Shown: positions 31,702 through 51,760, numbered from the stretch's first letter. The stretch: DNA of 58,737 bases from Anaerolineae bacterium (GCA_026129165.1 JAHCIP010000003.1:1-58737), one strand, 5' to 3'. Notes: generated from the sequence alone by a model not told the origin. Program-made: numbers and translations.

Positions 31702-32181
31702 ATGCCCATCACGTTCTATGGCGTCCAGGACAAGCCCTACGGCTGCTTCTCCAACTTCTCGCCCCACGGCTTCAAGCTGGACGGGGCCTGGTGGCCGACG
31801 GTGGAACACTACTTCCAGGCCCAGAAGTTCCACGGCACGCACCACGTGGACATCATCCGCAAGCTGGCGACGCCGGCCGACGCCAAGCGCCTGGGCCGCC
31901 AGCGCCGCCGACCCCTGCGCCCGGACTGGGAGGGGGTGAAGGACGACGTGATGCGCCGCGCCGTGTTGCGTAAGTTCGAAACCCACGCCGACCTACGCGC
32001 CATCCTGCTGGTGACAGGCGACGAAGAGATTATCGAGACCTCACCCTCGGATTACTACTGGGGCTGCGGCAAGACCGGCACGGGCAAGAACCGCCTGGGC
32101 CAGATACTCATGGAAGTGCGCGCCATCCTGCGGGAGCAGACGCGGCGCGACCCCCAGGAAAACATGGCATCTTCTGTATGA
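31702..32181 (+). CDS. NADAR (YbiA/DUF1768) family protein
   Basis: Reads FSNFSPHGFKLDGAWWPTVEHYFQAQKF...YWGCGKTGTGKNRLGQILMEVR, collinear with my memory of E. coli YbiA. Confidence 0.85.
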   Translation: MPITFYGVQDKPYGCFSNFSPHGFKLDGAWWPTVEHYFQAQKFHGTHHVDIIRKLATPADAKRLGRQRRRPLRPDWEGVKDDVMRRAVLRKFETHADLRAILLVTGDEEIIETSPSDYYWGCGKTGTGKNRLGQILMEVRAILREQTRRDPQENMASSV

Positions 32182-33836
32182 GCCACCTACGTATCATCCC
32201 CCTCGGCGGCATGGGGGAAATTGGCCGCAACATGACCGCCCTTGAGTACGAGGGGAGCATCATTGCCATTGACTGCGGCTGGATGTTCCCCGAACGCGAC
32301 CAACTGGGCATTGACGGCTCCATCCCCGACTTCACCTATCTCCGCGACCACGCCGATGGCGTCCTGGCCCTTCTCGTCACCCACGGCCACGAGGACCACA
32401 TCGGCGCTATCCCCTACCTGCTGCGCGACCTGAACATCCCCATTTTCGCCACGCCCCTAACACGTGGCCTGATTGAGGTCAAGCTCAAGGAGCACAAGCT
32501 GCTGGCCTCGGCCGACCTGCGCACTATCCCCCAGACGGCCCGCCTGAGCCTGGGGCCGTTCCAGGTCGAAGCCTTCCCCGTCAGCCACTCCATCCCCGAC
32601 GCCGTCGGCTACGCCGTCACGACGCCAGCCGGCCTCGTCGTCCACACCGGCGAGTACAAGTTCGACTTCACGCCGACCGGCGACCGCCGCACCGACGTCC
32701 AGAAGCTGGCCGAGTTCGGGGCGCGGGGCGTGCTGGCCCTGCTCTCGGACAGCACCAACGCCGAACGGTCGGGGCTGACGCCCTCCGAAGAGGCCGTGGT
32801 TGATACCTTCGACCGCATCTTCGCCAGCGCGCCAGGCCGCGTCATCGTCGCCACCTTTGCCTCCAACATCTCCCGTGTCCAGCAGGTGGTAGACGTGGCC
32901 TATCGGCATGGCCGCGAGGTCGGCGTGGTCGGACGGAGCATGCAGGACAACACCAGCATGGCCCTCGACCTGGGCTACCTGACCGTGCCGCAGGGCCGCC
33001 TGTTGCGTATCAACGAACTGGACAAGCTGGACGACGCCGAGGTCGCCATTGTCTGTACCGGCTCGCAGGGCGAGCCAACATCGGCCTTGACGCGCATGGC
33101 GAACAACGAGCACGCCCAGGTCAAGATTCGGTCGGGCGACACCGTGATCCTGTCGGCGACGCCCATCCCCGGCAACGAGGAACTGGTCTACCGCACCATC
33201 AACAACCTGTTCCGCCTGGGCGCGTCGGTCTACTACCAGTCCGCGCCGCTGCCGGGCAACGGAGGTCTGGTCCACGTCTCCGGCCACGCCGCGCGCGAAG
33301 AGCAGAAGCTGATGATTAGCCTGGTCCGCCCGCGCTACTTCGTCCCTATTCAGGGCGAGTACCGCCACCTGGTGCTACACGCCGAACTCGGCGCGTCGCT
33401 AGGCATCCCGCGCGAGAATATCTTTATCCTGGACAACGGCGACGTGCTGGCGATGGACGAGACCAACGCGGCGGTGGTGGAGGAGGTCCAGGCCGACACC
33501 GTCTTTGTGGACGGCCTGGGCATCGGTGACATTGGCCAGGTCGTGCTGCGCGACCGCCACCACCTGGCGCAGGATGGCTTCCTGGTGGCCATTGTCGCGC
33601 TCAGCCAGGCGGGTGAGTTGCTGGAAGCGCAACTGGTGTCGCGCGGCTTCGTCTACGCCCCGGACAGCGAGGCGCTGCTGGAGGAGGCCCGCCAGGCGCT
33701 CGTCACGGCCATGAGCGAGCACGCCCACCGCGTGCCCGAAGGTGTGGAAGACCTGGTCAAGACCACGCTGGGCAGCCTGCTCCACAGTCGGACGCGACGG
33801 CGACCGATGATTCTACCGGTGGTGATGAGAGTATAA
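32178..33836 (+). CDS. rnj: ribonuclease J
   Basis: Reads LRIIPLGGMGEIGRNMTALEY...VTHGHEDHIGAIPYLL, with a beta-CASP part. 552 aa. Confidence 0.9.
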   Translation: MSHLRIIPLGGMGEIGRNMTALEYEGSIIAIDCGWMFPERDQLGIDGSIPDFTYLRDHADGVLALLVTHGHEDHIGAIPYLLRDLNIPIFATPLTRGLIEVKLKEHKLLASADLRTIPQTARLSLGPFQVEAFPVSHSIPDAVGYAVTTPAGLVVHTGEYKFDFTPTGDRRTDVQKLAEFGARGVLALLSDSTNAERSGLTPSEEAVVDTFDRIFASAPGRVIVATFASNISRVQQVVDVAYRHGREVGVVGRSMQDNTSMALDLGYLTVPQGRLLRINELDKLDDAEVAIVCTGSQGEPTSALTRMANNEHAQVKIRSGDTVILSATPIPGNEELVYRTINNLFRLGASVYYQSAPLPGNGGLVHVSGHAAREEQKLMISLVRPRYFVPIQGEYRHLVLHAELGASLGIPRENIFILDNGDVLAMDETNAAVVEEVQADTVFVDGLGIGDIGQVVLRDRHHLAQDGFLVAIVALSQAGELLEAQLVSRGFVYAPDSEALLEEARQALVTAMSEHAHRVPEGVEDLVKTTLGSLLHSRTRRRPMILPVVMRV

Positions 33837-35493: not shown

Positions 35494-36506
35494 GGGCGAT
35501 GTGCTAGATGGGGAAAGCGAGCTTCTTGATGCGCAAGAAGTGGGGCTCCCCCAGTAAGCGGTTGAGATAGAGACACAAGGTATGCGCCGCGAGCTTGGTG
35601 TAGAGGCGGGCACACAAGCCCCAGAAACTGTGGGCATGGTGGGTCTGGAGGTGGAACTGCTCGGTCAGTTGGTCGTTGACCGTCTCGATGATCTGACGGG
35701 CCTGGTTGAGGAGACGGCGGAGACTGGGGGCGACTTGGCGTTTCTGGTTGCGCCGCGGCAGGGTCAGGACCGTGATGCCACGACGTTGGCGCAAGTCCTC
35801 CACGCGCTCGGCGTGGATGTAGGCCTTGTCGCCGATGACCGTCAGGTCACTGTGCTCCTCGAGGAGCGCGAAGCCGACCGCCCCGTCAGGCTCGTTGGCT
35901 GGGGCGAGGGCGAAGTCCAGGATGAGACCCCCGAGGGTCAGTAACAGGTGCAGCTTGTAGCCGTAGATGGTCTGCTTCTTGGTGGGCACCTTGCCGAAGG
36001 CGGCGCCGTGGGCTGCCCACTCGCGGGAGGCGGTGGGCACCAAGTGAAACTGCACCACCGGCACGGGCAGACTGTCGATGATACATTGACCATCCTGGGC
36101 CACATCCAAGACCCGCAGCACCGTTTGGCGTAGGAGGTTGATGGCCAGCATCAAGTTGCGTCGTCGCCGATTGAAGCGACTGCGCTCTGGAATATGCGGG
36201 AACAAGTGGCGGTAGGCCTGCCACTCATGGATAAGGTGGGTTTCCATGGCCCAGCCTCGACACTCGCCGACAATCGCCATCGTCATCAACTCGCTATCGC
36301 TGCACCCGGACTTGGGACCGGGCCGTGGAAACAGGGACTCTATCGGCTGCCAAAGGTCATCAATGAGCACGTACATCCAGGTGACGAAGTCATCGAAGTC
36401 TGCTATCATTGGCGTACCCTCCAGCGTGGCGTTGAGTTTGGGTGGTACCTCACTCTTGCCACACTGGAGGCGTTCTTGTCAAATCCGTTCATCTAGCACA
36501 TCGCCC
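35494..36506 (-). mobile_element. IS982-family insertion sequence (1,013 bp)
   Basis: Perfect 17-bp terminal inverted repeats: GGGCGATGTGCTAGATG (35494-35510) and CATCTAGCACATCGCCC (36490-36506). They enclose a single DDE transposase ORF. I could not identify a clear target-site duplication. Confidence 0.8.
35504..36409 (-). CDS. IS982 family transposase
   Basis: 301 aa, with SDSELMTMAIVGE, GYKLHLL, IGDKAY, RQIIETVNDQL and HTLCLYLN, which are typical IS982 blocks. Confidence 0.85.
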   Translation of the reverse strand: MIADFDDFVTWMYVLIDDLWQPIESLFPRPGPKSGCSDSELMTMAIVGECRGWAMETHLIHEWQAYRHLFPHIPERSRFNRRRRNLMLAINLLRQTVLRVLDVAQDGQCIIDSLPVPVVQFHLVPTASREWAAHGAAFGKVPTKKQTIYGYKLHLLLTLGGLILDFALAPANEPDGAVGFALLEEHSDLTVIGDKAYIHAERVEDLRQRRGITVLTLPRRNQKRQVAPSLRRLLNQARQIIETVNDQLTEQFHLQTHHAHSFWGLCARLYTKLAAHTLCLYLNRLLGEPHFLRIKKLAFPI

Positions 36507-36776
36507 TATTAGGAAGCTGTTTTCAGGCGTATCCAGGGTCATGTAGAGCCGCCCCAGTTCCGTCAATTCATAAGGACTGTTCTTTGGAGAGGAAACGAGA
36601 AATCCCATCCGTTCGAGGGCTTGCCGGTATTGTTCAACCTGCCGTTTAGAGCAGGCCAAGCGTTCGGCCATCGGCTCGGGTTGATTGATCCCCTCCGTCA
36701 CGTAGAAGGGGAATATCAATAACCGATGGATAGTGTCTAGCTCGGACATCTCATCCCTCTCCGCCTCGTGCATCAT
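36489..36776 (-). CDS. winged-helix DNA-binding-like protein whose 3' end runs into the IS982 inverted repeat
   Basis: Contains MAERLACSKRQVEQYRQALERMGFLV (HTH-like). The last 6 codons are IS sequence. The start overlaps the stop of the DpnI-like gene. Confidence 0.45.
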   Translation of the reverse strand: MMHEAERDEMSELDTIHRLLIFPFYVTEGINQPEPMAERLACSKRQVEQYRQALERMGFLVSSPKNSPYELTELGRLYMTLDTPENSFLIGRCAR

Positions 36777-37543
36777 CGAAGCTTGTAATGACCCTGGCCT
36801 TCAAACTCTAGCAGCCCGACATCACGTAGTATCTGAAGCTGCTGACGAATTTTCGGGCGCACGTTCTGATTGTCAGGATGTAACTCCCCCAATTCGTGTT
36901 CGAATTGATACATCTCCGGCAGGCTGAACTCCCTCTTGCCTAGCCTCCTAACCACCTTGAGGACGTCAAGCGTCCACCCCCGCAGGTTGACTCCTAAGCT
37001 GGCAAGGGGCTGAACACGTTGAAATTGCTCTCTAACTTCGCTTTTCCCAATAACCTCGCTATTCAAAATCAGACGCAACTTACCGTCTGTCGGGATGTCA
37101 CCCAGAACGATATTGCAGCCCACCCATCCAGCGCGTCGAGCCTTTGAGCTAAGAGGCTTTCGCTTCTCAATCACCGACTCCGTAAAAAAGAAACGCGGCA
37201 CGAGCAGTAAGTTACGAACGAGCCAATCAGGCGTGTACTGCATCACGAAGAGATTAGGCGTGGCATCGCTCCGGATAGCGGCGACCATAGCGTCATAGGC
37301 CGCGTCCATAATCCTGGTTTCATTCCAGGTTTTGCTGCTTTTGAGTTGATAGAGTTGCCCGCAGACCGGGCATTGAAAGTCTACCACGCGAGTATTCGGA
37401 GGCATTGGCGCAAGGGTATTAGAAGTACAGGCGGGGCAGTAGAGGTTCCTGGCCCCCCATTCTTCGGTCACTACTCGAGCGACCTGAGCGCGACTATGAT
37501 AGCCAGAGGCTAATTCTGGAAGTAGGCTAAGGTCCATATCCAT
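36773..37543 (-). CDS. DpnI-type (Type IIM, methyl-directed) restriction endonuclease
   Basis: Collinear with my memory of S. pneumoniae DpnI: YCPAC...DFQCPVC...QLKS, RKPLSSKARRAGWVGCNI, and a winged-helix tail KIRQQLQILRDVGLLEF. Confidence 0.88.
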   Translation of the reverse strand: MDMDLSLLPELASGYHSRAQVARVVTEEWGARNLYCPACTSNTLAPMPPNTRVVDFQCPVCGQLYQLKSSKTWNETRIMDAAYDAMVAAIRSDATPNLFVMQYTPDWLVRNLLLVPRFFFTESVIEKRKPLSSKARRAGWVGCNIVLGDIPTDGKLRLILNSEVIGKSEVREQFQRVQPLASLGVNLRGWTLDVLKVVRRLGKREFSLPEMYQFEHELGELHPDNQNVRPKIRQQLQILRDVGLLEFEGQGHYKLR

Positions 37544-41913: not shown

Positions 41914-44900
41914 ATGGGGGTTCGACCCACCGGGTTGTGGGCCTGGGCCGTACAGCACACGCGGAACCTGTCGCGCGTGGCCCTGGCCGTTGTCCTGAGT
42001 CTACCACTTCTTCTGGCGCTGGGCGTCAGTCTGTGGCTGCTTGGCCCCAGCGACGCGGGCGCCCAAACGGCGTCGCCCTTCTACACCCTGCGCGTCTACG
42101 GACGCGGCTATTATGGGGCGGGCGCCGATAACATTGTGGACCCCGGCGCTGGCCTGACCGCCCAAATCGCGGATCCGGCGACGGGGGCCGTCCCCGAGGA
42201 CGCGCCTTACACCGACCTCGCCGGCGTCTTCCACCCCCAGCACCCCCAGGCCCCTCGCATGGACAGCGTCACCTGGAATCCGGCCTACATGGCCGAGGGG
42301 TTCACGTTTGACGAGAACCAGCGCCGCGGCCTCTACAATCAGATGTTCGCCAACGGCATCAATATCGCCGAGAAGGTCTGGCACCGCATTTGGTACGAGC
42401 CGGAACACTGGGACAAGGACATCAACGCCGACAACCGCCTCACCCGCGACCCGCTAACCGGCCGGCCGCGCGACCCGCGCCTCCAAAACGGGCTGCCGGT
42501 CTGGCTGGACGACATCTGGTATCCGGCCATCCAGCAGGAATTCACCTACACCCTGCTGGAGAACCAGGAGCCGGTCCCGCGCGGCTCCGCCAAGCCGGAG
42601 CCAGTCTTTGGCCGCGCCGGCACGGTCCAGTTCGTCTTCCCCGTCGGCATGCGGGCGTCGGACCTGTTCGACGCCAACGGCCAGTTGGACACCAGCGACA
42701 CGGGGAACGGCGGGCGGGGCTATGGCCTGACGAGCCTGGACGCCGACTTCGACGGCACGCCCGACATCGTCCACGTGGACAGCGAGTTGACCCTCTTCGA
42801 CAAGACGGGCATCGCCGCCGACTTCAACGGCGACGGCCTCCTCCAGGGGCTGCGCCAGGGGTCCGGGTTGACCCCGGATGGCAGCGAACTGGCTATCCTC
42901 CACGTCAACCTGAGCAACCGCCCGCTCCAGGTCGGCCAGTACGCCCAGTTCCTCGACCATGTCGTGCGCGTGTCGGCCCTGTACAACGACTCGGTGCGGC
43001 TGGAGTTCTGGTACACCGGCGACCTGCGGCCCCGCTATCTCGGCTCTCAACTGCTCTACGTGGGCGATATGGCGCTGGCCGGTACGCAAGGCCCGACGCA
43101 ACTCATCGGCGCCGTGCGCAACGGCGGCCCTGGCAGCAACCTGTGCCAGTTCCCCGTCGGCCCCTGGTTCGCCTACGTCGAGACGGTGGACACCGTGGAC
43201 GGCACGGCGGCCCTGTGGCTGGGGCGCGGCCTCGGCCGCCCCTTCAGCGCGATGGAAGACGGCATTGGCGTCCCCGACCGCCGCCCGGGCGACCCCTGGT
43301 GCCTCAAGCGCATGTATGTAGACGGCCACGAGTACAACGTGGTCGCCATCTCCGCCCGCGGCAACGGCGCTCCCATCTACCAGACCGACTGCAACCTGGG
43401 CGACGGCCGGGGCGACCTACCGGCCCCCTATGACCCCTCCGACTTCGAGTTCATCACCCTCCGCCAGCCCATCCCCAAGGGGCCGGATATTCTCATCGCC
43501 CAGCACTCGGTCCGTCTGCGCGGCTACCAGCCCGACGAGTGCCTGCCCAAGCTGCCGCCCTACAACTACGAGCACTACATTCTGGCCGACATCGTCCAAC
43601 TCGACGAGTTGACCGCCGCCATCCCGACGCCGGGGGCTATCAACCCGACGCCCACGGCTACACCCGGCTCAGCCGAGAACCTGATCTACTATTTCGGCAA
43701 GCTCGTCGGCCCGGTGCCGCCCATCCTCCAGGCCAACGCGCCCTTCCCGTATACCACAGAGAACGGCGTCTACAATAACCCGCGTGAGACCAAGTGGTCC
43801 TACCGGGAGGAGACCCGGGAGCCGTCCTTCCTCGGCGTGCTGCGCGAGAAGTACGGCGAGCGGCCGCAGAGCGCCGAGCCGCTGCCAGGCCAGCCGCCGA
43901 CTGAGTTCTTCTACGCCGAGCAGTTCTGGACCCTGCCGTGGTCCTATACCGAGTTCGCCCTGCCCGACCTGGCCGACGCCCGGACGGGCACGCGCCGCGA
44001 CCCGGCCACTGGCCGCGAGGTCGCCAACCCCGACCTATATCTGCTGACGAGCGCCTTCCGCGCGCCGCAGGGGCAGTACCAACTGTGGACCCAGGATCGG
44101 ACCACGCCGTTCCGTTGGGGCGACTGGCCGATTCAGGTGGACCCGCCGCCCTTCGCCGCCCAGAACCGCGTCAAGTTCTGGTTCGACCCGGCGCGCTCGC
44201 CCGACCCGGCCGCCAACCCTTCGGGCAAGATCTACCGCGACGCCCAGGGGCTGCGCCTCTACGGCAAGACCTTCCGCGACCCGGACGACTTCACGGGCAC
44301 GGCCGGCGATATCAGCGTGACGCGCGACGCCAACGGCTACCGCGTCGAAGTGCCGCCCTATACCGACCCATGGGCGCCGTTTAACCCACAACTACCCCAG
44401 GCGCCGCGCAAGGACTCGCTTACCTTCAACCCGGCCTACCTGGACGAGTTCCGCAACAGCAACGAGGCGCTGGCCTCGCTCTATGGCAGCATCTCGATTG
44501 AGGGGGCCGATGCGCGCGAGAAGGTCTACTTCCGTCAGTGGTACGAGAACAGCTATCTGGACAAGCTGCGCTTCGAGAGCGACCGCACGCGCGATTATCG
44601 CTTCTCGGCGCTGATGCAGGAGTTCACCTACCTGTTCCTGGATACGCAGGACCGCCCGGCCCACGCCCAACCCGGCAATAGCCGCCTGGCCCTGCCCATG
44701 GCGACGGGCCGCAACGAGTTGCCCGTCCCACCCAGTGGCGCGGGGGTGAGTTGGAACCCCACGCCGAGCTTCGGCTACGGCCTGACCAGCTTCGACGCCA
44801 ACTTCGACGGCACACCCGACATTGTCACCATTGACAGCGAGCAGTCGCTGGCCCGCAAGACGGGTATCCGCGCTGACTTCAACGGCAACGGCCAGGTGGA

Positions 44901-47900
44901 CAGCCTGCGGCCGGCCGGCGCGCCCGACGTGGACGGCCTCGCCATCTTCTCCGTCGAGAACTTTGTCCTCCGCCGGGGCGAGAGCCTGCAGTTCATGGAC
45001 CACCTCGTCACCTTGAAGAACATCGGCGTGGGCGGCTTTGGCAGCCAGCCCACGGCCGACGTAGACTTCTGGTACACCGGTGGCGGGCTGCACGCGCTGG
45101 GGCTACTCGTCCCACCCGGACTTTATCCGCGCCGCCAGCTTCAATGTCGGTGATATGGCGATAGCCCAACGTTCCAGCGTGCGCCGCCTGCCGGCGGGCA
45201 CGGATAACCTGGGCCGCGTGGACGGCGGCTGGTATCTCTACGTCAGCGGCATCAACCAGTACAGCGAAACGGTGGTCGTCAGCGTGGGCCGCGCCCTCGG
45301 CGCGACCCATGCCGCCATTGACGACGGGGTCGGCGGGCAACCTGGCCCAGCCGACGCCGTGGTATCTCAAGCGCTTCTTCGTGGACGGCCACGAGTACAA
45401 CGTGGTCGCCCTCCAGGTCGTCCCGCGCGACGCCCAGAACACCCAGGGCGAGGACTGGGAATTCAAGTACATTACTTTCCGCACGCCAGTTCCCAAGCCC
45501 TACAGCTTTGTCAACTTCCAGGATAGCCTGGTCCTCCAGGGCTATTTCCGGGGAGCCGTGCTGGACAACCCCGACACCAACGTGGTCTCAGTGATGCCGC
45601 CCTTCAACGTACCGCACACCATCGCTGAAGACATTGTGCGTATCCCTCTGACAGACTTCGCGACCAGCCGCGAGCACCCGCGCACGGACGTGGTGGGGCC
45701 GCTGCGAGGCGCGGGACCGATGCAGATACGCATCGTGGCCGAGAGCACGGAGCCGCGCTTCACTGGCGAGTTGCGCGAGTTGCTCTTCCTGCGCGACCTG
45801 CCGCTCACCACGGCCGGCTCCAAGCGTGATATTTGGAGCACCGAGCAGTTCCATGTCTACCCCGATCGCTATACCGAGGTCCGCCTGCCCGATGACCAGT
45901 TGTACCTGCTGACGAGCGACTGGACCTCGCCCTACAGCCGGTTGCACTTCTTCGCCTTCGAAGACACCAACCCGGCCGTGCTTGGGGTTCAGAACAGCCA
46001 GAACGACATCGCGGCGGCCTGGGCGGCGACCAACCCCGGCCAGACGACGGCGGGCATCCCGTTCACCAACACCGACGGCGTCGGCCCGGCCGACTTCCCG
46101 GTGGGGACCAACACCGGCCATATAGACTTCTTCAACGCCGAGGACCGCTCCGTCCCGGCCGACCCGACCCAGGCGCGCGTCAAGTTCGTCTACAGCCCAC
46201 GCGACACGACGGATATTTACGTCAATCCTGGCCCGCCCCAGCAGCCCTGTGGGGTCTCGCCCGGCACGGTTACACCGACCGTGACGCCGTGCAGCGGGCC
46301 GAACTGTCCCGCCACCAGCACCCCGACCCGCACGCTGACACCCAGCCCGACGCCGTGTACAGGGCCTGGCTGCGCGCCCACCCTGACTCCGACGGCGACG
46401 GCAACGCTTTGCGTTGGCCCCGGCTGCGCCCCGACCCTGACGCCGACCGCCACGCCAACCCTGTGCCTCGGCCCCGGCTGCGCCCCGACCCTGACGCCGA
46501 CCGCCACACCGACGACGTGCCTCGGCCCCGGCTGCGCGCCGACCCTCACCAGCACGCCCACACCGACCCGGACCCCCACCCAGTCGCCTAACCTGGGCGC
46601 TATCGTTGGCACGGTGTTCAGAGATGTCAACTGCGATAGCATCTGGCAGGGCGGCGAGCCGGGTCTGAGCGGTGTGCTCATCACCCTGATTGCCCCCGGT
46701 CCCGACAACGCCTTCGGCACAGCCGACGACGTGATCGTCGCCACCACCACCACCGACGCCAATGGAGCCTATAGCTTCCCGAACGTGGCCCCAGGCTCGT
46801 ACACAGTGCGCGAGACCGACCCGCCTGGGTTCAAGAGTTCGACGCCCAATGACGTGGTAGTGAGCGTAGTGGTGGGTGGGGTAACCACCGTCAACTTCGG
46901 TGACTGTCTGGCGGCGACCTCTACCGCGACACCGACAGGGACCGCCACTCGCACGGCGACCCCTTGTACTGGCCCCAACTGCCCGCCCACGCTGACGCCT
47001 ACCCCGACGCTCGAGCCGTCGGCGACGCCCACGCCGACTAGGACGCCGACCTCTGGCACGCCCATCGTCACGTCCACCGCCACGGCGACCCGCTCGCCGA
47101 ACCTGGGCGCGATCATCGGCGTCGTGTTCAGGGATATGAACTGCAACAGCGTGTGGGAGGGCGGCGAGCCGGGTCTGAGCGGGGTCCTCATTACTCTGGT
47201 CGCGCCCGGCCCCGACAATGCCTTTGGCACCGCCGACGATGTCGTCGTGGCGACCACCACCACCGACGCCAACGGCAATTACAGCTTCTCGAACCTCCCA
47301 CCAGGCGCCTATCTGGTGCGTGAGACTGACCCGGCCGGCTTTGTGAGCAGCACGCCCAACACTGTTGTGGTTACTGTGGTGGGTGGCGGTTTCGCCATCG
47401 CCAACTTCGGTGACTGCTTGGGCTTGACGCCGACTCAGACCCTCACGCCGACCGTAACTCCTACCGTCTGTAGCGGCCCTGGCTGCCCCGCGACCGGGAC
47501 GCCCACCCTGACTCCCACCGCGACCCCGACCACCAGCCCGAATCTGGGCACGGTCAGGGGCGTAGTGTACCTCGACCTCAACTGTGACGGGGTCCAGCAG
47601 GGCGGCGACACGGGCATCCCCGGCGTGACAGTGCGCCTCATCGGCGCCGGTCCCGACGGCATCCTCGGCACCGGGGATGACGTGGTGATCGGTACCACGA
47701 CGACCGACGCCACTGGCGCTTACATCTTTACCAATATTCCCGCTGGCGTCTACGACGTGCGCGAGACGGACCCAGTCGGCTACACCAGTTCGACCTCCAA
47801 CTCCGTCATCGTGGTTGTCGTCGGTGGCGGCGTCGCCATCGCCAACTTTGGCGACTGCCTGGCCTTGACGAGTACGCCAACGGCCACACCGTGTACTGGC

Positions 47901-50858
47901 CCCGGCTGCCCGACGACCAGCACGCCGACCACTACCCCAACTGTCACCCCGACGGGCGGGCCAAACGTCGGCAGCATCATCGGCGTCGTCTACCGTGACA
48001 TCAACTGCGACGGCGTCCAGCAGGGCGGCGACACGGGCATCCCCGGCGTGACCATCACCCTGTTAGGCCCTGGTCCCGACGGCCTGATTGGGACAGCCGA
48101 CGATATCGTGATTGCCACGACGACGACGAACGCCAACGGCGCCTATGCCTTCACCAACATCCCGACGGGTGTGTATGCGGTACGGGAGACGGATCTGGTG
48201 GGTTACACCAGCTCGACGCCTAACACCGTCCTGGTGGTCGTCGTGGGCGGCGGGATTGCCATCGCTAACTTCGGCGACTGCCTGGGCGGGACGAGCACGC
48301 CAACGCTGACCCCGACGGTCACGCCCACGTCAACCGCCACGCCGACCGTGTGTGTCGGCCCCAACTGCCCAGCGACCGGCACACCGACCGTGACCTCAAC
48401 GGTCACTCGTACGCCAACCCCGACCCCGACGACCTGTGTCGGCCCCGGCTGCGCGCCGACGGGCACGCCCACGCTGACACCTACCGCCACCTCGACTACG
48501 GGACCGCGCCCGGGGACGATCATCGGCGTCGTCTACTACGACCGCAACTGTGACGGGGCCCGCCAGGGCGGCGAACCGGGTCTGAGTGGCGTAACGATCA
48601 CCCTCCTCGCTACGGGGCCGGACAATGCCTTCGGCACCGCCGACGACGTAATCGTCGCCACGACCACCACCGATGCCAACGGCGCGTACCTCTTCTCGAA
48701 CGTGGCCCCCGGCGTCTACATGGTCCGCGAGACCGACCCGGCCGGCTATATCAGTTCGACGCCCAACAACGTCGTCGCCGTCGTCGTTGACGCGGGTCTC
48801 GCTATCGCCAACTTCGGGGATTGTCTGTCTACGCCCACCACCGTGACACCAACCCCCACGCCGACCGTCACGCCGACCCAGTCGCCGAATCTGGGCGCCA
48901 TTGTCGGCGTCGTCTTCAGAGACGTCAATTGCAACAGCGTCCTGGAAGGCGGCGAGCCGGGTCTGAGTGGCGTAACCATCACGCTGTTCGCCCCTGGCCC
49001 CGACAACGCCTTCGGCACCGCCGACGACGTGGTCGTCGCTACCACTACCACCGATACCAACGGGGCTTACAGCTTCCCGAACCTCCCCCCCGGCGCGTAT
49101 CTCGTGCGCGAGACCGACCCGGCCGGCTATACCAGCTCGACGCCCAATTCTGTCATCGCGGTCGTTGTCGGTGGCGGTGTGGCCGTCGTCAATTTTGGTG
49201 ATTGCCAGACTGTAGGGCCGACGGTGACGCCGACCCCCACCACGACCCGCACCCCCGGCGGGCCGACGCCCACGCCAACCACGACCGCGACGCCGTCGCC
49301 CTCGCCCACCGCACCTATTTACCTGGTCGTGGTGTGTGAGGTGTCCAGCCCCTCCATCACCGTCCAGTGGATGGTAGTCGGCGCCTTCGACAGCTTCGAG
49401 TTGGAGCGGACCCCGGCCTTCCCGAATGGCTCCAGTATCAAGACGATCAGCGGCACGCTGCGCCATGTAGACAACGACGTGACACCGGGGACGAGCTACA
49501 GCTACCGTGTCCGAGGCGTGCTGGGGAACGAGCGCACCGCCTGGAGCAACACGGACGGCTGCACCCCCACCCAGCCCTCGCCCGCGCCGCCCATCCTGGA
49601 CTGCCGCACCGTCTCCGCGTCGCTCATCAACGTGAGTTGGCAGATTCCGGACCTGTCGGCGGTAGGCATCCGCGTCGAACGGTCGCGCAACGGCGTGAAC
49701 TGGACCCAGATCACCGACCAGCCGCGCGGGGCCAGCCCCTACCGCGACAGCGGGCTCCAGGACAACACGCTCTACTTCTACCGAGGCCGCACGTATCGCA
49801 CGCCGACCGGACCGCTGTCCGATTACTCGACCATTGTGAGCTGCCAGACGCCGCCGCGCAACGATGACGTCACCGGCACGGTACTGCTCCAGGGCCGCAA
49901 CAATCACGCCGGGGCGCGCGTACTGATTGACCGGGGCACGGCGGGCTTCGCCATCACCGACGACCTGGGCGCCTTTAGCATCGCCGGCACTCCGTTTGGC
50001 CGGCACACCGTCGAGATTGACATGGCTGGCTACCTGCCCATCAGCCGCACCATCGAGGTTGTCAGTGTGGACACCCCAATGGGCGTCATGAACATGCTAG
50101 CTGGCGATGCCAACGGCGACCTGAAGATTGACCTGTTCGACCTGACCATCGTGGCGTCGGCCTACGATATCGAGTACGGCGCGCCAGGCTGGGACAACCG
50201 CGCCGACATCAACGGCGATGGCGCGGTTGACATCTTCGACCTCGTCCTGGTCAGCCAGAACTTCGACCTGCGCGGCCCCACCAACGGCTCGCTGCAAGGG
50301 AAGTACGCTGGCGGCCAGGCGACCGACAGCCAGGCCAAGACGGCGGCCACGGCCACTGTCCCCACCGCCCACGCCCGCCTCGTCAACCGCACGCCGCAGG
50401 CGGCCTACCGCCACGGCGACCGCCTCACGGTAGCCGTCGAGTTGGACAGCCTGACCGACTTCTACGGTGGCGCGCTTGACCTGGTCTACGACCCGGCGGT
50501 GTTGCAGGTCGTAGACATGAACCCGGCCCAGAACGGCGTGCAGGTCCAGCCCGGCGACCTGTTCCCCGCCACTGCCTTCTTCGCCCCGCGCGACCAGGTG
50601 GTGACGCGGCCCGACGGCAAGCAGGTCGTGCGCTTCGCCGGCGTGCGCCGTGAGGCCGACCCGGTCAGCGGGCAGGGGGTCCTGGTCGAGGTCACGTTCG
50701 AGGTCCAGGGCTGCGGCGCGACCACGCTGGACCTGGCGCAGGCTCACCTGGACGTGTCGAACCCGGCCGGTGAGGCGCTGCCCGTCACGCTGGACGGCTC
50801 GGTCCGCCTCGGCGGCGCCTTCTGCCTGTTCCTGCCCCTGGTCCAGAACGGAAATTAA
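41914..50858 (+). CDS. giant modular secreted/cell-surface protein (~2,980 aa if two apparent frameshifts at ~45.09 and ~45.34 kb are read through)
   Basis: GGAGG lies upstream and the protein has an N-terminal signal/anchor. ORFs 41914-45153, 45080-45526 and 45309-50858 join collinearly when aligned to the first copy of the internal duplication (FWYTG...VGDMA...YVDGHEYNVVA). Downstream are PT-linkers, 6 SdrD-B-like repeats, 2 FN3, a CarboxypepD_reg-like domain, a dockerin and a cohesin. Confidence 0.8.
46584..49208 (+). repeat. six coding repeats of exactly 327 nt (109 aa, SdrD B-like/Cna-B-type fold) separated by Pro/Thr linkers
   Basis: The units are 46584-46910, 47094-47420, 47535-47861, 47958-48284, 48501-48827 and 48882-49208. 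Each runs from (S/G)PN(L/V)G...VFRD(V)NC(D/N)... to ...NFGDC(L/Q). Confidence 0.85.
49315..49860 (+). other. two fibronectin type III-like domains within the giant protein
   Basis: Domain 1: SPSITVQWMVVGAFDSFELERT...GTSYSYRVRGV. Domain 2: ASLINVSWQIPDLSAVGIRVERS...NTLYFYRGRTY. Confidence 0.6.
50103..50265 (+). other. dockerin (type I-like duplicated Ca-binding segment) within the giant protein
   Basis: Reads GDANGDLKIDLFDLTIVASAY ... ADINGDGAVDIFDLVLVSQNF. Confidence 0.75.
50375..50858 (+). other. cohesin-like C-terminal domain of the giant protein
   Basis: Reads GDRLTVAVELDSLTDFYGGALDLVYDPAVLQVVDMNP...VQPGDLFP...GQGVLVEVTFEVQGCGATTLDL. Confidence 0.7.
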
Positions 50859-50865
50859 CCGGATA

Positions 50866-50904
50866 CCCCCCTCTCGCTCCCCCCGCTTGCGGGGGGATGG
50901 GGGG
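50866..50904. repeat. C-run/G-run hairpin repeat (ctccccccgc ... gcggggggatgggggg)
   Basis: The tract reads ccccctctcgctccccccgcttgcggggggatgggggg. A second copy at 54697-54760 forms the 3' tail of the GNAT ORF. Confidence 0.55.
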
Positions 50905-50917
50905 AACTACAGACGCG

Positions 50918-50963
50918 ACCCGCCCGCCGGTTCGGAACCGGCGGGCGGGTTCTCGTTTCTTTT
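50918..50963 (+). terminator. rho-independent terminator of the giant gene
   Basis: A 15-bp GC stem, acccgcccgccggtt / aaccggcgggcgggt, with loop cgg, followed by tctcgtttctttt. Confidence 0.8.
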
Positions 50964-50986
50964 CCACCGCCCGCGCGTCTTTACCT

Positions 50987-51015
50987 TTGGCATCTTACGT
51001 CCCTCTGGCTACAAT
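50987..51015 (+). promoter_or_regulatory. candidate sigma70 promoter of the stand-alone cohesin gene
   Basis: TTGGCA (50987-50992), a 17-nt spacer, then TACAAT (51010-51015). Confidence 0.5.
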
Positions 51016-51085
51016 TGAGCGCCTCCCTCCTCCGCGCCGCCAGGACGGTGAGCGACTCTACTCTGTCTCTTTGCAAGGAGGTCAC

Positions 51086-51760
51086 GTGTCCCCCCGTTCT
51101 CTGTGGCCCTTAACCCTGTGGTGTCTCGCGGCCATCTGTTTGGCCGCGTTGAGCTACCCAGGCCGTTGGGCAGACGCCGCTTTGCCACCTACCTTCCGGG
51201 AGGGTTCCCCCGCCCCCCTCATCACGGCCAGCCAGCCGACGACACAGACCGTCGCCTCGATCCTTCGCTCTCCTATCAAACCCACGTATGACCCGGGCGA
51301 CCGCATTACCGTCACCGTGCGCATCGAAAACCTGGCCGATTTTTACGGCGGCAGTCTGGACTGGACGTTTAACGCCAACACCTTGCGCGTGGTGGACGCC
51401 GACCCGTCTCGGTCCGGGGTGCAGGTAACGCCCGGTTCGATTTTTGTACCAGGCTCATTCATCGCCTATCCCACCGGCGGTCAGGTGGATAACGTCAGAG
51501 GCAGAATCAGCTTTGCTGGCACGTATATCAACCCGATGCCCCCCTTCAACGGGATTGGCGACTTCGTCAGCATCACCTTTGAAGTCAAAAGCACGTGTGG
51601 CGCGACTCTCCTGGAACTGACACCGGATACCCTCAAGATGAGCGACCGCGACGGCCCGCCTCCTATCACCTTCCAGACGACCGGCCCATTGGTCCTCAGC
51701 GCGCGATACGGCTATTGCGTCTATCTGCCCCATGTCATGAATAGCTACAGCGGCGACTAG
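51086..51760 (+). CDS. secreted stand-alone cohesin-domain protein
   Basis: The GTG start lies 4 nt after AAGGAGG. It has a signal peptide (SLWPLTLWCLAAICLAALS) and a cohesin-like part, GDRITVTVRIENLADFYGGSLDWTFNANTLRVVDADP...GDFVSITFEVKSTCGATLLEL, paralogous to the giant protein's C-terminus. Confidence 0.7.
   Translation: MSPRSLWPLTLWCLAAICLAALSYPGRWADAALPPTFREGSPAPLITASQPTTQTVASILRSPIKPTYDPGDRITVTVRIENLADFYGGSLDWTFNANTLRVVDADPSRSGVQVTPGSIFVPGSFIAYPTGGQVDNVRGRISFAGTYINPMPPFNGIGDFVSITFEVKSTCGATLLELTPDTLKMSDRDGPPPITFQTTGPLVLSARYGYCVYLPHVMNSYSGD

Follow-up and report, generated by a model that had tools for sequence, protein, structure and literature searches.

Here we describe a pair of adjacent genes in a 58,737-nucleotide (nt) stretch of DNA from an Anaerolineae bacterium (GCA_026129165.1 JAHCIP010000003.1:1-58737; "the window" refers to this whole stretch), which may encode two components of a non-cellulosomal cohesin-dockerin system of uncultured Anaerolineales (Chloroflexota). 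In this reading, whose chances we put at about even, the modules would dock in trans and a short C-terminal tail would serve as a lineage-wide signal. The first component would be a giant Sec-exported surface protein of ~2,700-2,900 amino acids (aa) if intact, laid out as a signal peptide, a duplicated head, six SdrD-B-type β-sandwiches on Cys-containing Pro/Thr linkers, two fibronectin type III (fn3) domains, a CarboxypepD_reg-dockerin dyad, a cohesin and the tail. The second would be a separately promoted, secreted 224-aa protein in which a signal peptide and a spacer precede a paralogous cohesin and a similar tail. After export, the calcium-loaded dockerin of the giant protein is proposed to dock in trans onto a cohesin of the subfamily, be it that of the small protein, that of another giant copy or that of family members encoded elsewhere in the genome. 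Such docking would tether or cross-link large adhesin-like proteins at the cell surface, with the small protein taking the role of the single-cohesin anchoring proteins in cellulosomes. The tail, a lineage-wide C-terminal signal that is present here in a diverged, Cys-containing form, would most likely direct envelope retention, processing or attachment. The cohesin-dockerin part adds a new member to the known non-cellulosomal class, and the tail looks like a general signal of secreted Chloroflexota proteins that has no transmembrane helix.

The features of the locus are given below, with the supporting evidence in brackets. L001 and L002 are two orthologous loci, on an ENA contig and on a contig of an Anaerolineales metagenome-assembled genome, respectively; ORF1 and ORF2 are the two open reading frames (ORFs) into which the giant gene is split in the window; AF2 refers to AlphaFold 2 models, with confidence as the predicted local distance difference test (pLDDT).

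41914-45153, plus strand: ORF1 (1079 aa), the upstream piece of the giant gene; it has an N-terminal signal peptide or anchor (MGVRPTGLWAW…LLLALGVSLWLLGPSDAGAQ), contains a module with an internal duplication, and is collinear with residues 1-~1080 of the L001 orthologue.
45095-45340, plus strand: segment between two deletions, read in a third frame (…SSHPDFIRAASFNVGDMAIAQ…AIDDGVGG); matches the orthologues (DNA alignment to L001).
45309-50858, plus strand: ORF2 (1849 aa), the downstream piece of the giant gene, lacking its own signal peptide.
46596-49208, plus strand: stalk of six SdrD_B/SpaA/CarboxypepD_reg-type β-sandwich repeats on Pro/Thr linkers (Pfam, internal repeats).
49314-49850, plus strand: two fibronectin-III-like domains (Pfam for one, similarity for the second).
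49869-50063, plus strand: CarboxypepD_reg domain directly 5' of the dockerin (Pfam CarbopepD_reg_2).
50100-50261, plus strand: dockerin with two calcium loops, each followed by a helix (Pfam, PDB sequence match, AF2 model).
50262-50369, plus strand: low-complexity dockerin-cohesin linker of ~36 residues (pLDDT <50 at model residues 77-90).
50370-50816, plus strand: giant-protein cohesin, type-II-like by sequence, with a body Cys in QGCGAT at 50706-50723 (Pfam, Foldseek, PDB profile).
50817-50855, plus strand: giant-protein C-terminal tail AFCLFLPLVQNGN, a Cys plus a Φ-Φ-L-P-Φ-Φ core (low model confidence).
50917-50961, plus strand: intrinsic terminator, a 16-bp GC-rich stem (50917-50951) with a 3-nt loop and a T-run (scan; invariant in L001 and L002).
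50987-51015, plus strand: sigma-70-like promoter TTGGCA-17-TACAAT of the small gene (10/12 matches; kept in L001 and L002).
51016-51085, plus strand: 5' untranslated region (UTR), nearly invariant, containing a CCTCCCTCCTCC tract and, at 51075-51081, the ribosome-binding site AAGGAGG.
51086-51760, plus strand: small secreted cohesin protein, 224 aa (Pfam, orthologues, AF2 model).
51086-51178, plus strand: small-protein signal peptide, aa 1-31, followed by a Pro-rich spacer.
51251-51703, plus strand: small-protein cohesin, aa ~56-206, with a body Cys in STCGAT at 51590-51607.
51704-51757, plus strand: small-protein tail RYGYCVYLPHVMNSYSGD.

The domain identities carry the first part of this reading. 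Against curated Pfam cut-offs of 22.9 bits for Dockerin_1 (PF00404) and 24.1 bits for Cohesin (PF00963), ORF2 contains a dockerin at aa 1598-1651 (25.0 bits) and a cohesin at aa 1701-1806 (34.9 bits), and the small protein contains a cohesin at aa 69-176 (38.7 bits). With CarbopepD_reg_2 at aa 1521-1585, Pfam recovers at the end of the giant protein the same order of CarboxypepD_reg-like domain, dockerin and cohesin that an initial annotation, made from the sequence alone, had proposed. Type I dockerins consist of a duplicated 22-residue segment, in which a 12-residue calcium loop (D-x-N/D-x-D-x-x-x-D/N-x-x-D) is followed by a helix. Both 12-residue loops, DANGDLKIDLFD (50106-50141) and DINGDGAVDIFD (50205-50240), are canonical here, the AF2 model places helices at residues 17-25 and 50-58, and the best match among PDB sequences is 2y3n_B (E 3.7e-8), with 2jnk also among the matches; profile score, loops, model helices and PDB match together place the module in PF00404. 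The AF2 model of dockerin, linker, cohesin and tail (mean pLDDT 80.5; predicted template-modelling score, pTM, 0.76; domain blocks mostly pLDDT 71-92) shows the two dockerin helices and a β-sandwich. When the modelled giant-protein cohesin was compared with the PDB by Foldseek, the top 48 matches were all cohesins, headed by 2xdh (E 9e-9, TM(target) 0.70) and followed by type II and then type I cohesins, and its predicted fold agrees with the nine-stranded β-sandwich (jelly-roll) of the family. By profile against PDB sequences, the nearest relatives are type II adaptor/anchoring cohesins (3l8q, E 1.7e-11; SdbA, 2bm3). The assignments of the dockerin and of both cohesins thus hold, on scores above the Pfam cut-offs and on the match of the modelled cohesin to solved structures, and an identity of 36-38% between the two cohesins, with common blocks around DFYGG…L.VVD…GVQV.PG, confirms that they are paralogues. 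The small protein has a signal peptide at its N-terminus, in agreement with its proposed secretion.

Outside the docking modules, Pfam finds six SdrD_B/SpaA/CarboxypepD_reg-type repeats in ORF2 (SdrD_B, 6 stretches, E 6e-93) and one fn3 domain at aa 1340-1413; a second fn3-like copy is suggested by sequence similarity. The Pro/Thr linkers between the stalk domains (46290-48440, ORF2 aa 328-1048) carry ten copies of C-x-G-P-x-C (e.g., CTGPGC and CVGPNC), four of them encoded by a 54-nt tandem repeat, and each copy probably forms a small disulfide loop. No glycoside hydrolase, carbohydrate esterase, polysaccharide lyase or carbohydrate-binding module (CBM) domain was detected by Pfam in either protein or in the scanned neighbours, and no surface layer homology (SLH) domain by Pfam or NCBIfam in either protein; the earlier view of a locus devoid of carbohydrate-active enzyme domains is therefore borne out by the Pfam and NCBIfam scans of the proteins and their neighbours. 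The dockerin and the two cohesins are the only modules of their kinds found in the 58.7-kb window.

The two genes form a conserved unit. L001 has the same gene order as the window (giant gene, small cohesin gene, TerC, gcvT), and in L002 the small cohesin gene likewise comes after the giant gene. Comparison of the intergenic regions (window 50917-51085; L001 8490-8712; L002 5665-5835) shows that the terminator, the promoter, a ~70-nt leader and the AAGGAGG-4-GTG start are almost invariant in the three loci, above the level of the flanking coding DNA. Both the strong terminator and the small-gene promoter that had been read from the sequence were recovered by a scan and are almost invariant in both orthologous loci, and the GTG start, 4 nt after AAGGAGG, agrees with the called start of all orthologues. 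Six metagenomic orthologues of the small protein (57-86% identity) all have the tail, as do more distant single-cohesin proteins of 196-222 aa, and the sole match among the GTDB species representatives is an "uncultured Anaerolineales bacterium". Conservation of the gene pair together with its intergenic region in all three loci suggests that the giant and small proteins are a functional couple. The leader tract CCTCCCTCCTCC is able to pair with the AAGGAGG site. A regulatory RNA in the conserved 5' UTR was considered and rejected, as the UTR has no Rfam match and folds no better than shuffled sequences (z = 0.75).

The tail extends well beyond this locus. We used a working definition of a "YLPLVLR" tail, which is not a curated family, as Φ-[YF]-L-P-Φ-Φ within ~12 residues of the stop in a signal-peptide protein. 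Both window tails, first quoted as CLFLPLVQNGN (giant) and CVYLPHVMNSYSGD (small), fall within this definition as CLFLPLV plus 4 residues and CVYLPHV plus 7 residues, and they depart from the consensus given below in having no R after the core and, in the small protein, an H. Only 7-9 residues follow LP in the two proteins, consistent with the earlier observation that the tail has neither a transmembrane helix nor a basic tail. A cohesin-plus-tail profile retrieved 3575 representatives from a library of 1.84 billion proteins, of which the best 150, together with earlier hits, were examined. In this set the motif follows 60 of 86 C-terminal cohesins (~70%) and 21 of 278 internal ones; the shared C-terminal motif is therefore present on both window proteins, as proposed, but is not private to them. 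Among 173 cohesin proteins, the motif occurs on none of the 14 that end in a dockerin and on 68 of the other 159, a distribution that fits the tail and the dockerin as alternative C-terminal attachment devices. The full cassette of dockerin, cohesin and tail likewise forms the C-terminal end of an S8 peptidase (P0012), of a CHAP protein (P0024) and of P0016; LP is invariant in these tails across 27-85% identity, with the stop a few residues after Φ-[YF]-L-P-Φ-Φ. In some cohesin proteins the motif lies after a Pro/Thr linker, hundreds of residues from the cohesin, and in others it stands before the cohesin or a vWA domain. Model confidence for the tail is low in both AF2 models (pLDDT about 64-70 and 43-48), as would be expected of an unstructured, linear signal.

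A degenerate DNA scan of a metagenome collection for [VI]-Y-L-P-L-[VIM]-[LMI]-R, made to remove the cohesin bias of the profile, returned >120 sites. Among the matches listed, the motif lies <=16 residues from the stop in 108 of 124 in-frame ORFs, 97 of 116 unique cases end 0-5 residues after the closing R, and a cohesin of this type and dockerin loops were each seen in one carrier. In the flanks, which the search pattern does not bias, Y-R precedes the core and N-[YFH] follows, giving the consensus tail Y-R-[VI]-Y-L-P-L-[VI]-[LM]-R-N-x-COOH. Pfam domains on 56 carriers are diverse, comprising DUF11 (12 carriers), PKD, β-helix/NosD, CARDB, C25 peptidase, BNR, FG-GAP and CBM20, with Cohesin in 2. 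Carriers often occur several per locus, the complete small ones have clear Sec signal peptides (one is a cupredoxin), and the named cluster members are "Chloroflexota bacterium" and "Anaerolineae bacterium". Diverse signal-peptide proteins carry the motif in metagenomes, and its position at 0-5 residues from the stop on many unrelated secreted proteins strengthens and generalises the initial suggestion of a sorting or processing signal. No further tail was found in the 58.7-kb window; the cytoplasmic RNase J (32178-33836), which ends in …RRRPMILPVVMRV, resembles the loose pattern (PMILPVVMRV) and was treated as a chance false positive. Full-text searches of the accessible literature found no description of the motif or of Chloroflexota cohesins.

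Two groups of carriers deserve separate description. A plastocyanin-like cupredoxin with a signal peptide and the tail (L016/L108, a 147-aa ORF, …RLHPSMRGRILVRQKIYLPLVMRNR) offers a simple natural test case of the effect of the tail on a well-understood soluble domain. A very large, unannotated family of secreted proteins of ~92-99 aa with no Pfam domain, QSGGGYDLSW.TVDGGG…GGFWGG..Y.IYLPLVLRN, comprises >4677 clusters (90% identity), and the tail invariably closes these proteins; its loci include L009, L022, L028, L037, L040, L042, L053, L060, L089, L091, L107, L120 and L123-L126. In L123-L126 the small genes lie 9 bp downstream of a gene for a 443-463-aa protein without a Pfam match (L123 8599-9990; L124 8660-9991). 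A family of larger proteins recurs nearby in 22 other loci (e.g., L040, L060, L078 and L116). Its representative in L095, a 1379-aa ORF on the minus strand, combines G-P-x repeats of the collagen type and GGxN.ASG repeats with a C-terminal part like the S74-type intramolecular chaperone of phage tail fibres, followed by a transmembrane helix.

The giant gene is longer than was first read. Its end domains were identified correctly, but the protein as initially described is the 3' part only: the gene begins at 41914, where the signal peptide sits at the true N-terminus. In L001 the orthologue is a single ORF of 2728 aa, and DNA alignment with it shows two deletions in the window, one of 8 bp near 45100 and one of 2 bp near 45336. 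The L002 orthologue reads through both deletion sites. In the window, ORF1 ends at 45153 and its terminal sequence continues in other frames into the ORF at 45309. ORF1, the N-terminal ~1,000 aa, has no match in Pfam, NCBIfam or PDB sequences. Within 41914-45153 there is an internal duplication ~2 kb apart, with FG-GAP/VCBS-like calcium-loop segments (DADFDGTPDIV…ADFNGDG).

The split may be genuine, making the gene a pseudogene, or may stem from an error of assembly. A decaying pseudogene, such that the described system does not operate in this genome, is a serious possibility to which we assign somewhat less than an even chance: the 8-bp and 2-bp deletions leave the frame unrestored, with ORF1 stopped at 45153 and ORF2 without a signal peptide, whereas no further stop or frameshift occurs in 8.9 kb, the downstream domains are intact and score as well as those of the orthologues, and small indel errors do occur in metagenome assemblies. 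A second issue is what the dockerin binds. The residues of its helices (LFDL…VA, IFDLVLVS.NF) are nearly identical in unrelated proteins of the lineage, including many dockerin-ended S8 peptidases and other enzymes, and this favours a promiscuous, open network over a closed system of two proteins. Such a network, in which the two cohesins mainly receive dockerins encoded elsewhere (S8 peptidases, CHAP proteins and others), the giant dockerin plugs into other cohesins, and the gene adjacency reflects tandem duplication of a cohesin-plus-tail module without a dedicated partnership, would be in keeping with the size of the cohesin subfamily in the library and with the single dockerin and two cohesins of the window, so that further partners must lie elsewhere. 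Conservation of the giant-small pair and its intergenic region in all three loci, and the blocks common to both paralogues, speak against it, and we regard this arrangement as rather unlikely, though one to be reckoned with. It is nonetheless at least as likely as a closed two-protein fibre, against which weighs the occurrence of both modules in 23 of the 173 cohesin proteins of the subfamily; scaffoldins such as CipA also combine dockerin and cohesin in one polypeptide. Head-to-tail polymerisation into a fibre or lattice, as initially envisaged, would be purely speculative. We consider it improbable that the dockerin instead folds back onto the cohesin of its own chain, across the ~36-residue linker, so that the C-terminus would be a compact knob with a structural or auto-inhibitory role and no polymer would form. 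The AF2 model shows a long, disordered linker, the pTM of the two-domain segment is compatible with a modelled contact, and the dockerin-linker-cohesin order recurs in P0008-P0012, P0016 and P0024; however, the reverse order, with hundreds of residues between cohesin and dockerin, is equally common (P0014-18, P0025 and P0027). The order CarboxypepD_reg-dockerin itself recurs in P0009, P0012, P0014-18, P0025 and P0027, and is like an X-dockerin dyad.

The tail, for its part, might not be a signal but a structural extension of the cohesin subfamily, in which a disulfide would hold an extra strand or cap in place. In both window proteins it directly follows the last β-strand, and its Cys covaries with one in the cohesin body. 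Of 17 cohesins with the body Cys (the "GCG" column), 14 have a tail Cys <=4 residues before the LP core and the remaining three (P0057, P0074 and P0076) have a Cys 5-7 residues upstream in sequence, while neither Cys is present in 65 tail-bearing cohesins. This covariation points to a disulfide that may pin the start of the tail to the cohesin in this subfamily (C1802-C1839 in ORF2, C171-C211 in the small protein), though with cases from few clades it is suggestive only. As a general explanation we reject the idea that the tail is part of the cohesin fold, and a structural extension in place of a signal has, we think, little chance of being correct: the motif ends >100 proteins without any cohesin, can be separated from the cohesin by a long linker or precede it, is mostly missing from internal cohesins, and is modelled with low confidence. 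Returning to the proposal of a trans-docking pair with a C-terminal signal, several observations weigh against it. With dockerin helices so nearly identical across the lineage, the giant-small pairing need not be specific; the two frameshifts, if real, leave the dockerin-cohesin half without an export signal in this organism; and the covarying Cys residues mean that the start of the tail may be pinned to its domain in this subfamily. Some 10% of the copies of the motif lie within the protein, at domain junctions directly ahead of a cohesin, vWA, CARDB or PKD domain (e.g., P0054, P0056, P0068, P0133 and P0150; L050, L052, L099 and L114), and a strictly C-terminal signal leaves them unexplained; these copies might be processing sites. 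No candidate processing enzyme was found beside the carriers when the 2016 ORFs of 120 loci were clustered, which returned only other carriers, the collagen-like/S74-chaperone family and antisense shadows, and the neighbourhoods of L123-L126 and of the window contain housekeeping genes and no sortase-like gene. Finally, a sorting role would be argued by analogy only, given a tail with no transmembrane helix or basic anchor. We therefore put forward tentatively, at rather less than even chances, that the tail belongs to an undescribed class of Chloroflexota C-terminal sorting, attachment or processing signals with no membrane-spanning segment, carried by thousands of secreted proteins (including the family of >4677 clusters), served by its own recognition machinery, and replacing SLH or sortase anchors in cohesin proteins.

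Comparison with known systems supports a non-cellulosomal assignment. A close parallel in layout is CipA of Clostridium thermocellum (cohesins plus X-dockerin II) on SdbA-like anchors: in both cases a large secreted multi-domain protein with both modules is accompanied by a small single-cohesin partner, the nearest cohesins by sequence are of the type II anchoring/adaptor kind, and a β-sandwich lies directly before the dockerin, like the X module. In contrast to that pair, the present locus belongs to Chloroflexota rather than a Firmicute, has no carbohydrate-active enzyme, CBM or SLH, carries one cohesin per protein, and has a ~10-residue tail without a transmembrane helix where the SLH or sortase module would be. 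A cellulosome can be set aside, as neither a dockerin-bearing carbohydrate-active enzyme nor a CBM scaffoldin with multiple cohesins is present in the proteins or scanned neighbours. In Archaeoglobus fulgidus, cohesin and dockerin likewise occur in one polypeptide. The A. fulgidus cohesin 2xdh, the best structural match of the modelled giant-protein cohesin, and the modules of the Clostridium perfringens hyaluronoglucosaminidase (2jnk/2ozn) resemble those described here in being unrelated to plant cell-wall degradation; they differ in that the present locus adds an SdrD-B stalk, fn3, CarboxypepD_reg, the tail and an adjacent small cohesin paralogue. The A. fulgidus cohesin structure (Voronov-Goldman 2011) is cited in PMC9705933, and use of the A. 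fulgidus cohesin-dockerin pair is described in PMC12484212.

The stalk resembles those of the microbial surface components recognizing adhesive matrix molecules (MSCRAMMs) of Gram-positive cocci, in that tandem SdrD_B/SpaA-type β-sandwiches form a long stalk on a secreted protein. Here, however, there is no LPXTG, A-domain or SD repeats, the linkers are Pro/Thr-rich with C-x-G-P-x-C, and assignment to SdrD or SdrC was rejected with NCBIfam scores of 148.6 bits against a cut-off of 2500 and 106.5 against 1700; the B-repeat fold alone is shared. As with LPXTG/sortase, PEP-CTERM/exosortase and type IX secretion system (T9SS) signals, the tail is a conserved, extreme C-terminal motif on many unrelated Sec-exported proteins of one lineage, but it has no hydrophobic helix or basic cluster and is far shorter than a T9SS domain. 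CTERM signals are recognised by a transmembrane helix plus an Arg cluster that follow the motif, and T9SS domains are C-terminal β-sandwiches of 70-100 aa. None of these known signals accounts for the tail: an LPXTG sortase signal is rejected in that no helix and basic tail follow the motif and the sole NCBIfam LPXTG-pilin match lies in internal repeats; no NCBIfam/TIGRFAM model for PEP-CTERM, GlyGly-CTERM or another CTERM matches at E ≤ 1 in the window proteins and 10 other carriers; and the sole match to the T9SS C-terminal domain (TIGR04183) is internal (aa 646-673), at 21.8 bits against a cut-off of 23.

Non-cellulosomal cohesin-dockerin pairs have been catalogued, and their biology is almost unknown. 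The conserved two-gene unit described here, which pairs a giant adhesin-like protein with a minimal cohesin protein, is directly testable for assembly. The tail matters more than the cohesin-dockerin pair. Chloroflexota are a major, mostly uncultured phylum with an unusual envelope, in which the surface retention of proteins is an open question, and a short, very frequent C-terminal tag gives a handle for the prediction of surface proteomes, the search for the machinery that reads it, and biochemistry in cultured Anaerolineae. It is also a warning for annotators, as the motif is no feature of cohesins. The rest of the window holds housekeeping genes, an insertion sequence (IS) element and a DpnI-like gene; on the minus strand, at 35504-36409 and 36773-37543, a DDE transposase (IS) adjoins the gene for the DpnI-like methyl-directed restriction endonuclease.

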